IMG/VR virus record: IMGVR_UViG_2778261417_000003
Source: a virus
Lineage: Duplodnaviria; Heunggongvirae; Uroviricota; Caudoviricetes
DNA: 4,005 bases
Reading direction: 5' to 3' (one strand)
Shown: piece by piece, positions 1-4,005 of the stretch
How the letters are laid out: each line of letters starts with the position of its first letter
How positions within the stretch are numbered: the first letter of the stretch is position 1
Made by a program: the position numbers and the translations under genes
Notes under the pieces: generated by a model
What the model saw: the letters and a program-made list of their open reading frames with translations, nothing else
Database searches by the model: none
Told to the model about the DNA's origin: nothing

Positions 1-474
1 AACTGTACGATTAAGGGCATGCTGGAGGCGAATCAGGTCAGAGGCGATTTTGTTAAAACAGTATCCAAATCATTCCCGAAGAAGGCTGGTACGTGGGGTA
101 ACACGGAAACACCAAACGGGACGGTTACAGTCACCATAAGCGATGATCATAACTTTGACCGTCAAATCATTATTCCGCCCATTATTTTTAACGGTGTGGC
201 GTATGACGATCCGGGGAGCGGAAATAACCCCGGAGGCACGCGATACACGGGTTATGGTTTTGAAGTTCGCAAAAACGGCGTATTAATCGCATCCAGAGAA
301 ACTAAAGGGGCCATTCCCGGTAGTTACAGTGCAGTTATTGATATGCCGAGTGGTGGTGGTAGCGTCACTCTGGAGTTTAAGATTTTCCAGAAAGGCAATC
401 AGGGGGCAGGCAATATCACCGACTGTACGGTGATTGTGACCAAAAAAGCCGCTTCCGGCATCAGTATTCGTTGA
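1..474 (+). CDS. J: C-terminal fragment (5'-truncated by the window edge) of a J-like tail tip / host-specificity protein (central tail fibre, receptor-binding end)
   Basis: Frame 1 is open from base 1 (aac tgt acg att aag ggc atg ...) to TGA at 472-474, so the ATG at 19 in the ORF track is internal, not the true start. The gene sits immediately upstream of lom and stf, which is the lambda late-region order J-lom-stf. The product is Gly/Thr/Val-rich and looks beta-rich, as expected for a fibre tip domain. Identity as J is by synteny and general resemblance, not a verified alignment. Confidence 0.7.
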   Translation, partial: NCTIKGMLEANQVRGDFVKTVSKSFPKKAGTWGNTETPNGTVTVTISDDHNFDRQIIIPPIIFNGVAYDDPGSGNNPGGTRYTGYGFEVRKNGVLIASRETKGAIPGSYSAVIDMPSGGGSVTLEFKIFQKGNQGAGNITDCTVIVTKKAASGISIR

Positions 475-492
475 AATTGTTATAACCCATAT

Positions 493-520
493 AAGGGCAC
501 CAGAAATGGTGCCTTTTTTA
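493..520 (+). terminator. Rho-independent terminator downstream of the J-like gene
   Basis: Hairpin with stem GGCACC (496-501) pairing GGTGCC (508-513), extendable by A/U and G/U pairs to AAGGGCACC / GGTGCCUUU, 6-nt loop agaaat, followed by a run of six T (514-519). The T-run is on the + strand side only, so it is oriented for + strand transcription. Confidence 0.7.
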
Positions 521-532
521 TTGCAGAAAAGC

Positions 533-538
533 GAGAGG
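533..538 (+). promoter_or_regulatory. Shine-Dalgarno sequence for lom
   Basis: GAGAGG at 533-538, with 5 nt (taatt) between it and the ATG at 544. Confidence 0.55.
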
Positions 539-543
539 TAATT

Positions 544-1169: not shown

Positions 1170-1196
1170 AGCCCGCCGGTTCAGGCGGGCTTTTTT
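1170..1196 (+). terminator. Rho-independent terminator downstream of lom
   Basis: Perfect GC-rich stem GCCCGCC (1171-1177) pairing GGCGGGC (1184-1190), closed by an extra A-T pair (1170/1191), 6-nt loop ggttca, then TTTTTT (1191-1196). It starts 27 nt after the lom stop codon. Confidence 0.85.
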
Positions 1197-1207: not shown

Positions 1208-4005
1208 ATGGCAGTAAAGATTTCAGGTGTACTGAAAGACGGCACAGGAAAACCGGTACAGAACTGCACAATCCAGCTGAAAGCAAAACGTAACAGCACC
1301 ACGGTGGTGGTGAACACGCTGGCATCTGAAAATCCGGATGAAGCCGGGCGTTACAGTATGGACGTTGAGTACGGTCAGTACAGCGTTATTCTGTTGGTGG
1401 AGGGATTCCCGCCGTCACATGCCGGGACCATCACCGTGTATGAAGATTCTCAACCCGGTACGCTGAATGATTTTCTCGGTGCCATGACGGAGGATGATGC
1501 CCGTCCGGAGGCACTGCGCCGTTTTGAGCTGATGGTGGAAGAGGTGGCGCGTAACGCGTCCGCGGTGGCACAGAACACGGCAGCCGCGAAGAAATCAGCC
1601 AGCGATGCCAGCACATCAGCCCGTGAGGCGGCAACCCATGCGACTGATGCTGCAGGCTCAGCACGCGCAGCCAGCACGTCAGCCGGACAGGCCGCGTCGT
1701 CGGCTCAGTCAGCGTCTTCCAGCGCAGGAACGGCATCAACAAAGGCCACTGAAGCGGAAAAAAGTGCTGCCGCTGCAGAGTCCTCAAAAAGCGCGGCGGC
1801 CACCAGTGCCGGTGCCGCGAAAACGTCAGAAACGAATGCTGCAGCGTCACAAAAATCAGCAGCCACTTCTGCATCCACTGCGACGACGAAAGCGTCAGAA
1901 GCCGCCACTTCAGCCCGGGATGCGGCGGCCTCCAAAGAGGCGGCAAAATCATCAGAAACGAGCGCAGCCTCGAGCGCCAGCAGCGCAGCTTCCTCGGCAA
2001 CGGCGACAGCAAATTCTGCGAAGGCGGCCAAAACGTCCGAGACGAACGCTAAGTCTTCTGAAACGGCAGCGGGACAGAGTGCCTCAGCTGCGGCAGGCTC
2101 AAAAACAGCGGCTGCGTCGTCTGCCAGCGCCGCGTCAACAAGTGCCGGGCAGGCCTCAGCCAGTGCCACCGCCGCCGGAAAATCGGCAGAAAGCGCCGCA
2201 TCATCCGCTTCAACAGCCACAACGAAGGCTGGCGAAGCCACTGAGCAGGCCAGCGCAGCAGCGAGGTCAGCTTCCGCAGCGAAGACATCCGAAACGAACG
2301 CGAAAGCGTCGGAAACCCGTGCAGAATCCTCAAAAACGGCTGCCGCATCGTCCGCCAGTTCGGCGGCGTCATCGGCATCATCTGCGTCTGCTTCAAAAGA
2401 TGAGGCGACCAGACAGGCGTCAGCAGCGAAGGGCAGCGCCACGACAGCATCCACGAAGGCGACAGAGGCAGCTGGCAGTGCGACGGCGGCAGCACAGAGC
2501 AAAAGTACGGCGGAATCCGCGGCAACGCGCGCCGAGACAGCGGCAAAACGGGCAGAGGATATTGCATCCGCCGTGGCGCTTGAGGATGCGAGCACGACGA
2601 AAAAGGGGATAGTCCAGCTCAGCAGTGCGACCAACAGTACGTCTGAAACGCTGGCGGCAACGCCAAAGGCAGTAAAATCAGCCTATGACAATGCAGAGAA
2701 ACGTCTGCAGAAAGACCAGAACGGCGCTGATATACCCGATAAGGGACGCTTCCTGAACAACCTTAACGCGGTCAGTAAAACAGACTTTGCTGATAAGCGT
2801 GGTATGCGTTATGTGCGGGTTAACGCTCCTGCAGGTGCAACATCTGGAAAATATTACCCTGTTGTTGTTATGCGTTCTGCTGGCTCAGTAAGCGAACTGG
2901 CATCAAGGGTCATTATCACCACGGCAACGCGAACCGCAGGCGATCCGATGAATAACTGCGAGTTTAACGGATTTGTTATGCCTGGTGGCTGGACTGACAG
3001 GGGGCGTTATGCTTATGGAATGTTCTGGCAATATCAAAACAATGAACGAGCCATCCACTCAATAATGATGAGTAATAAGGGCGATGATTTGCGCTCTGTG
3101 TTCTATGTTGATGGCGCTGCTTTCCCTGTTTTTGCGTTTATCGAAGATGGCCTGTCAATATCCGCACCTGGTGCTGATCTCGTTGTTAATGATACGACCT
3201 ATAAGTTTGGTGCAACAAATCCGGCGACTGAATGTATCGCGGCGGACGTTATCCTTGATTTTAAGAGTGGGCGTGGTTTTTATGAGTCTCATTCGTTAAT
3301 CGTTAACGATAACTTGTCGTGCAAAAAACTTTTTGCCACAGACGAAATTGTAGCGCGTGGTGGTAATCAGATTCGAATGATAGGTGGGGAGTATGGTGCA
3401 TTATGGCGTAATGATGGCGCTAAAACTTACCTGCTGCTTACCAATCAAGGTGATGTTTATGGTGGCTGGAATACATTAAGACCGTTTGCTATTGATAACG
3501 CAACCGGCGAGCTGGTTATTGGAACCAAACTGTCCGCAAGTCTGAACGGTAATGCATTAACAGCAACAAAGCTGCAAACACCAAGACTGGTTTCTGGGGT
3601 TGAGTTTGATGGTTCCAGAGATATTACTTTAACCGCCGCGCACGTGGCTGCTTTTGCCAGAAGGGCAACGGATACATATGCCGATGCGGATGGTGGCGTT
3701 CCCTGGAATGCCGAATCAGGCGCTTACAATGTCACCCGCTCTGGCGACAGCTATATTCTGGTTAACTTCTATACCGGAGTCGGAAGTTGCCGGACCCTGC
3801 AGATGAAGGCGCATTACAGAAATGGAGGTCTGTTCTACCGTTCCTCAAGAGATGGCTATGGTTTTGAGGAAGGCTGGGCAGAAGTTTATACCTCGAAAAA
3901 TCTTCCACCAGAAAGCTACCCAGTTGGCGCACCAATCCCGTGGCCATCAGATACCGTTCCGTCTGGTTATGCCCTGATGCAGGGGCAGACTTTTGACAAA
4001 TCTGC
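1208..4005 (+). CDS. stf: Side tail fibre protein Stf, long mosaic form, 3'-truncated by the window edge (at least 932 codons present)
   Basis: Hand translation in frame 2 from ATG 1208 shows no stop codon through base 4005. The N-terminus [62 protein letters not shown]... matches the lambda Stf N-terminus as I recall it. A long Ala/Ser/Thr-rich repeat region follows, then a central module, and the window ends in ...[29 protein letters not shown], which resembles the conserved lambda Stf / T4 gp37-type segment. The ORF track omits it because it lacks a stop in the window. The length and central module resemble the long Stf homologues of E. coli lambdoid prophages (StfR-like) more than lambda Stf itself. 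Confidence 0.9.
1820..2572 (+). repeat. Three imperfect in-frame tandem repeat units inside stf (about 210, 252 and 290 bp), each starting with the motif K-T-S-E-T-N-A
   Basis: The units start at 1820 (aaa acg tca gaa acg aat gct), 2030 (aaa acg tcc gag acg aac gct) and 2282 (aag aca tcc gaa acg aac gcg). Each also carries a recurring SSK-x-AAA-S/T-SA submotif (near 1778, 2093, 2321). Composition is almost entirely Ala/Ser/Thr with scattered Lys/Glu, and very GC-rich at the DNA level. Confidence 0.8.

Follow-up and report, generated by a model that had tools for sequence, protein, structure and literature searches.

Few genes of lambda-type phages are said to be active in the silent prophage; lom is one of them, and its product influences adhesion to host cells. 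To our knowledge, the promoter of lom has never been defined, and the question raised by the junction between J and lom is from where lom is transcribed. The DNA analysed here (the window, 4,005 nucleotides in all) was the subject of a preliminary description that treated the lom promoter as an open problem, in line with the literature found, which gives neither a mapped transcription start nor 5'-end data for lom and states that little is known about the lom promoter (PMC2147009). Three sources of lom RNA had been put forward: the extended -10-like element TGtTATAAC, a promoter further upstream within the coding sequence of J, and read-through of the J terminator. Direct reading of the sequence finds TTGAAA, TGtTATAAC, the hairpin, the T-run and the ATG of lom all where that description had placed them. 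These features are real and correctly placed, whereas the reading of TGtTATAAC as a promoter is not supported, and the evidence favours read-through among the options. What lies here is an ordinary J terminator that is already annotated as such, with a promoterless lom cassette behind it, and it is reasonably probable that positions 471-543 constitute the 3' untranslated region of J plus a short lom leader, with lom transcribed only by read-through of the J terminator.

The window is the tail region of a lambdoid prophage of the phage 434 type and carries the 3' end of J, lom and stf, all on the plus strand. J, the tail-tip gene (named central tail fiber in the annotation of OL657226), occupies 1-474 with its last 157 codons, which include the C-terminal receptor-binding domain of the 434 type (PF12421 Ig_GpJ_C, E = 1.5e-26), and ends with the stop TGA at 472-474. 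[quoted passage not shown] The 5' part of the side tail fibre gene stf (1208-4005; PF08400 phage_tail_N, E = 7.8e-72, together with a Gp34_trimer Pfam match), labelled stfR or side tail fiber in related records, comprises the first 932 codons and runs off the window. Over the first 1300 bases, J-lom-stf shares 96-97% DNA identity with mEp460_ev081, phi458, 434 and lambda h434, and of 5426 complete E. coli genomes searched, 5108 contain matches to the 4-kb window, the median genome having three such places. The window is, thus, a very common 434-type lambdoid tail region.

Approximately between 1560 and 2560, stf contains a long Ala/Ser/Thr-rich, GC-rich repetitive stretch that gives rise to long spurious ORFs in several of the other frames, on both strands. 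Lambda-like stf was also found in many assemblies of unrelated bacteria, among them Leeuwenhoekiella, Pseudomonas, Shewanella, Desulfosporosinus, Oceanobacillus and Kitasatospora (including L196-L213). In several cases it is on low-coverage contigs of about 48.4-48.5 kb, which has the look of contamination by lambda control DNA. The search of the genome collection with the Stf N-terminus returned mostly such lambda contamination, and from the profile search with the J C-terminus only near-identical loci were retained.

Immediately after J, the terminator scan identifies an intrinsic terminator on the plus strand (493-522), composed of a stem-loop at 493-516 with a GC core at 495-513, a T-run at 514-519 and ATT. 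The hairpin, AAGGGCACCA-GAAA-TGGTGCCTTT, begins 19 nt past the J stop and forms a stem of 10 pairs, with a folding energy of -15.6 kcal/mol (z = -3.9) and U6 followed by AUU behind it. The conservation of this structure was evaluated in junctions gathered from IMG/VR with anchors at the starts of lom and stf, which exclude both the hairpin and the box discussed below; this gave 154 junctions in 51 haplotypes, and 32 distinct versions were aligned. In this alignment, 90% of the cells of the stem are paired, while versions in which the partners were shifted pair in only 33-61%. In two pairs of the stem both partners are replaced, GC by AU at one and CG by UA at the other, with 6 haplotypes for each replacement, and the covariation score was reached by none of 500 shuffles. 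The curated record of phage 434 likewise marks the stem-loop as a terminator, along with the ribosome binding site and the terminator of lom; it annotates no promoter here. In its predicted structure and its covariation, the J hairpin has the marks of a genuine intrinsic terminator.

At the same position, lambda has a non-homologous and weaker hairpin (-9.9 kcal/mol), and Salmonella phage Fels-1 has a third, unrelated terminator hairpin between J and stf; the box TTATAACCC, which precedes the hairpin in the window, is absent from the J terminators of both phages. Given that these non-homologous terminators occupy the same place without the box, the comparison suggests that a terminator directly after J is the conserved function. 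In the late operon of phage 434, terminators are annotated downstream of D, J, lom and tfa, and also upstream of J.

A small ORF (506-541) also begins in the hairpin, with its ATG in the loop (506-508); it encodes MVPFLLQKSER and stops with TAA at 539-541, 2 nt before the lom ATG. The equivalent ORF of phages lacking lom encodes MAPFLFVE and ends 2 nt short of the start codon of stf. The small ORF has its start codon and a possible Shine-Dalgarno sequence hidden within the stem, a variant with an inverted loop has no ATG, and this ORF is probably a coincidence. The J stop TGA shares its reading frame with the lom ATG (472-546), with 24 codons and no stop between them, a relation that is not conserved given the indels of 1-2 nt in other alleles. 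On the minus strand of an IMG/VR contig (2563366..., L182), an insertion sequence with an IS4-like transposase lies in the 5' arm of the J hairpin, upstream of lom; this locus was set aside as an alternative context for lom, being an insertion in the hairpin.

Comparison of sites with and without lom delimits a lom cassette of approximately 674 bp on the plus strand (523-1196, the right edge being ambiguous by 1-2 T), located between the T-run of J and the stf ribosome binding site and composed of a 21-nt leader, lom and its own terminator. In Tritos, ev017, 2G7a and at least 20 IMG/VR loci, all without lom, the J stop is followed by TTATAACCC, the hairpin with TTTTTTATT, and then TGTGGAGTGAnTATG, where stf starts. 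Phages with lom have the same order up to TTTTTTATT, then GCAG, lom and GGCGGGCTTTTT, and then TGTGGGGTGAATATG of stf; in full, TTTTTTATT is followed in these phages by GCAGAAAAGCGAGAGGTAATT-ATG, lom, its TGA and GCCCGCC-GGTTCA-GGCGGGC-TTTTT, before TGTGGGGTGAATATG. The microhomology of the T-run cannot tell an insertion of lom from a deletion. The intrinsic terminator at the end of the cassette (1170-1196, plus strand) was found by the terminator scan, with a hairpin at 1170-1191 of 8 pairs, 7 of them GC, a T-run at 1191-1196 and a folding energy of -18.3 kcal/mol, and it is annotated in phage 434.

The DNA that precedes the ATG within the cassette is very short. The distance between the T-run and the ATG had been given as 23 nt; it is indeed short, the exact count being 24 nt (520-543). 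The lom leader (523-543, plus strand) carries the Shine-Dalgarno sequence GAGAGG at 533-538, by direct reading. Between 514 and 537 there is no hexamer with an A at position 2 and a T at position 6, and neither the built-in sigma70 scan nor the matrix scan found a promoter in the 21-nt leader. Judged from these letters, the leader leaves no room for a sigma70 -10 element. With no fitting -10 hexamer downstream of the T-run and ahead of the Shine-Dalgarno sequence, polymerase would have to pass the J terminator in order to transcribe lom.

The lom leader is identical next to lom alleles whose coding sequences are only about 75% identical. When compared with 523-552, three such alleles (L313, L314 and L315, approximately 75% identical) share the leader and the first three codons (GCAGAAAAGCGAGAGGTAATTATGCGTAAA). 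The shared leader points to a recombination breakpoint located a short way into lom, or else to selection acting on the leader. Two further contexts of lom were considered and rejected. In a degraded prophage (L091), the N-terminal part of the large terminase gene has been fused by a deletion to the lom leader, at a point some 17 nt upstream of the ATG, with lom truncated; what appears to be an alternative context is, thus, a deletion junction of terminase and lom leader. In the Rac prophage of E. coli K-12 (L231, 1427389-1428984), lomR is fused to ynaA and split by IS5, and it was rejected as a proxy with published start-site data given that its J-lom junction is deleted. Because this junction is missing in lomR, the transcription start maps of K-12 are uninformative here.

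The element TGtTATAAC is present exactly at 478-486 of the plus strand, with TG at 478-479 and the hexamer TATAAC at 481-486. Its resemblance to a promoter does not exceed what chance would give. The exact 9-mer is expected 0.06 times per window, which is not the appropriate comparison; the relevant class, formed by TGn and at least 5 of 6 matches to TATAAT, has 1 member in the window (both strands) versus 1.6 expected, a plus-strand member at 20-120 nt upstream of a fixed ATG being found in about 3% of simulations. The pattern TGNTANNNT, which demands both key bases of the -10, occurs 2 times versus 5.1 expected, and none of these occurrences is at the TGtTATAAC site. The built-in sigma70 scan of the window found no promoter near lom. 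With an admittedly crude sigma70 matrix, built on our own approximate frequencies, TGtTATAAC scores approximately 0 bits, versus 13.8 for lacUV5, 13.4 for lambda pR and 8.7 for galP1.

The hexamer TATAAC has the A at -11 but a C at -7, and this C is invariant in the 32 haplotypes. The preliminary description had seen no good -35 for TATAAC, and the matrix scan extends this to every spacing; the TTGAAA at 471-476 contains the J stop TGA (472-474). The TG is a minority feature: among 78 loci of the same J type (J C-terminus 95-99% identical to that of the window), it is found in about 10, which carry TTGTTATAAC, and most carry ATATTTATAAC. The majority Stx-type allele is TTTTATAAC, without TG, and lambda has TGTGTTACAG at the position of the box. 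A start about 7 nt past TATAAC, as had been proposed, does fall at approximately 493, the base of the hairpin stem; a transcript from TATAAC would start at the first paired base of the terminator, and the U-tract would lie at +22 to +27. Because the TG is not conserved, the -7 position is a C, a -35 is absent, the score is near 0 bits and lambda lacks the box, TGtTATAAC does not look like a dedicated lom promoter; the fact that the box is kept where lom is absent points in the same direction. Most likely, TGtTATAAC is not the lom promoter and represents one variant of a box associated with the terminator.

Other types of sites were sought by eye in this segment. A sigma32 site was rejected given that only 9-10 nt separate TTGAAA from CCCATAT, too short a distance, and a sigma54 site was rejected given that the offset from GG to GC is 15 instead of 11. 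No sequence here made a convincing PhoP box, IHF site or DnaA box. A minus-strand promoter that would use the palindromic TTATAA was dismissed with a best score of 3.4 bits.

A promoter inside the coding sequence of J, further upstream, combined with partial read-through of the J terminator, would be another source of lom RNA. The top-scoring site of the window is of this kind, with TTGATA (338), a spacing of 16 and TGgTAGCGT (357-365) on the plus strand. Its 11.5 bits are nonetheless within the range of the shuffled sequences (95th percentile 12.0), its -10 is replaced by GGGGAAGCGT in about 37 of the 78 loci of the same J type, and the built-in scan found no promoter inside J. Furthermore, J 3' ends that stand beside identical lom leaders are only about 40% identical in protein, so no shared internal promoter is evident. 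The suggestion that the promoter lies further upstream in J thus finds no conserved candidate, the best match at 338-365 being one that shuffling also yields, and we consider such a promoter quite unlikely.

What is conserved upstream of the hairpin is the box TTATAACCC (480-488, plus strand), identified in the haplotype alignment as part of the J 3' untranslated region and terminator module. In the 32 distinct haplotypes it shows only two variants, each in a single haplotype, TCATAACCC and TTAAAACCC, the latter in E. ruysiae and phage 2G7a. The 4-7 nt on each side vary and carry indels, those that separate the box from the stem being hypervariable, in at least 14 versions. Between the stop and the stem, the box accounts for 9 of the 22 non-coding columns and for 2 of a minimum of 24 substitution events, which gives a binomial P of about 5e-4, or about 7e-3 when corrected for position, in a crude model that ignores relatedness. 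The conservation of the box across related loci exceeds chance, while the TG, which is outside the core, is not conserved. Every 434/Stx-type junction retains the box, whether lom is there or not, and at least 20 loci without lom, with at least 3 different J 3' ends, have both the box and the hairpin.

Given these observations, it is conceivable, but on balance doubtful, that TTATAACCC is a selected functional element of E. coli lambdoid prophages, acting either as a weak attenuated promoter or as an RNA element. In the first case, the TATAAC box would be a weak constitutive sigma70 -10, TG-extended in the allele of the window, with a start at approximately 493 at the base of the hairpin; most transcripts would end after about 27 nt, a fraction would read into lom, or into stf where lom is absent, and the 5' hairpin would stabilise the RNA. 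The box is conserved beyond its flanks, no allele has lost the A at -11, not even TCATAAC or TAAAAC, the spacing between box and hairpin is roughly constant, and the allele of the window has the TG. T at -7 is nearly universal in sigma70 promoters. Here, the C at -7 is invariant, and so is the CCC, which a -10 does not require. Without a -35 and with the TG mostly absent, the majority allele is a bare hexamer with 5 of 6 matches. The terminator that such transcripts would meet is strong, as seen from folding and covariation, and the box is present where lom is absent and absent in lambda, where lysogenic expression has been reported. A weak promoter of this type is, therefore, unlikely.

The same box could act at the level of RNA, as a site for RNase E or other processing, as an Hfq site, or as the seed of an sRNA that comes from the 3' untranslated region and stops at the J terminator, in all cases unrelated to the initiation of lom transcription. 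A conserved single-stranded island with variable flanks, followed by a hairpin and a long U-tract, is the layout of a 3'-UTR sRNA. DapZ is a small RNA derived from a 3' untranslated region, and a very weak Rfam match to it is found at 460-523 (15.5 bits, E = 9.8). This match falls far short of the gathering score and reflects the terminator; at the permissive threshold used, the Rfam search of 300-1300 returned only noise (DapZ with 15.5 bits and isrK with 13.1 bits). In the genome of phage 434, no site complementary to the box was found near a start codon, and GGTTATAA occurs on the plus strand only in the C-terminal codons of lom and at one unremarkable position. Given also that the box is absent from lambda and Fels-1, a role of this kind is improbable.

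The conservation of TTATAACCC could also be without function, reflecting a recent shared ancestry of the junction together with a mutation or indel rate that is locally raised beside the hairpin. The T-run and the lom leader are also invariant, even beside divergent lom, which indicates that the junction is young or was spread by recombination; the variable bases abut a perfect palindrome, and more distant relatives have no box. Against this, variable columns are found within a few bases on both sides of the box, and the corrected P is about 7e-3, making this the explanation to which we give the least credit, as very unlikely. Three candidate readings of the box thus compete: a weak attenuated promoter, an RNA element, and shared ancestry beside a mutable palindrome.

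Additional observations were made on the box. As a repeated boundary motif it was rejected, given that its other copies in 1.6 Mb of related loci sit in coding sequence, and phage 434 does not have it at its remaining late-operon terminators. In the Stx-type allele the box does supply J with a second stop in frame (TGA ATT TTA TAA), but a role as backup stop was rejected given that the box is out of frame in the allele of the window. Together, TTATAACC at 480-487 and GGTTATAA at 1129-1136, which falls in the final lom codons (G-Y-K-F-stop), make up an 8-nt inverted repeat around lom. This is probably due to chance: the box is also found where there is no lom, and the C-terminal motif of the barrel protein constrains the second copy.

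Read-through of the J terminator, the explanation that we favour, places the origin of lom RNA upstream of the junction. In the lambda late operon, Q-modified polymerase coming from the late promoter passes the intrinsic terminators, and lom and stf are in this way made late. By analogy, it is most likely that during lytic growth the Q-modified, terminator-resistant polymerase of the late operon reaches lom of the window. The RNA of lom would in every case come from polymerase that passes the J terminator, and in the prophage this would be restricted to leakage from weak or cryptic starts upstream. If only such leakage reaches lom in the prophage, the lysogenic expression of the lom allele of the window should be low.

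Reports on lysogenic lom disagree. It is listed as transcribed in lambda lysogens (Chen 2005, PMC1151598; also PMC7067206), and it was not detected on arrays in another study (Osterhout 2007, PMC2147009). These disagreeing reports are consistent with an expression that is weak and variable. The short-tailed Stx phage Phi24B showed equal levels of lom RNA in the lysogenic state and after induction (PMC3342100); this phage is unrelated, and its lom is in a different context. Nonetheless, three points speak against the favoured explanation. The conservation of TTATAACCC beyond its flanks, with the A at -11 in every allele, is compatible with a -10-like function; the lysogenic expression reported for lom of lambda implies a promoter in at least that phage; and lom of Phi24B is expressed equally in lysogens and upon induction.

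The analysis removes one tempting candidate for the lom promoter and indicates that the widespread 434/Stx-type allele has no room for a lom promoter of its own behind the J terminator. The question becomes how much transcription leaks through the J terminator in the lysogen, and from where. Annotation pipelines and surveys of morons should not assume a promoter upstream of lom, although the practical consequence is modest, and the lysogenic expression of lambda lom is not transferable to 434/Stx-type alleles without data. If TTATAACCC were to act as a promoter, this would be very weak and attenuated by the terminator, giving a low constitutive level of lom (or stf) RNA in lysogens, and the rare TG allele of the window would be an up-mutation that raises the lysogenic expression of lom. 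If it were to act as RNA, it would provide a processing site or an sRNA seed from the J 3' untranslated region.

Among the known systems, lambda offers the closest comparison for the junction. Its J-lom region shares the order of J stop, hairpin, TTTTATT, a leader with GAGAGGT and ATG, and the left edge of its lom cassette is at the same point as in the window. It differs in having TGTTAC where the window has TATAAC, and in having TATTAT and TATAAA (18939-18947 in lambda, L002) directly after the T-run, where the window has ATTGCAG. A weak -10 that spans the J-lom junction is, therefore, conceivable in lambda, and it is not conceivable in the allele of the window. The J terminator itself resembles the intrinsic terminators of the lambda late operon, with a GC-rich hairpin and a U-tract directly after the late gene J, and when compared with those that Q-modified polymerase reads through there is nothing unusual in it. 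The extended -10 of the galP1 type (TGnTATAAT) has in common with TGtTATAAC a TG one base before a hexamer, which here matches at 5 of 6 positions, and the lack of a usable -35. Unlike in the galP1 type, the C at -7 is found here in all alleles, the TG is not conserved, and a terminator follows immediately.

The lom cassette as a whole is best compared with morons, extra genes that lie between conserved phage genes, such as gene 15 of HK97 and lom and bor of lambda. A moron is usually described as carrying its own promoter (PMC3594210). Unlike this usual moron, the inserted DNA of the present cassette has 21 nt before the ATG, with no -10-like hexamer in them. In other respects the cassette resembles morons: otherwise collinear phages differ in whether they have lom between J and stf, and the gene is followed by a terminator of its own, has a GC content somewhat above that of its flanks, and encodes an outer-membrane protein that serves the fitness of the host.
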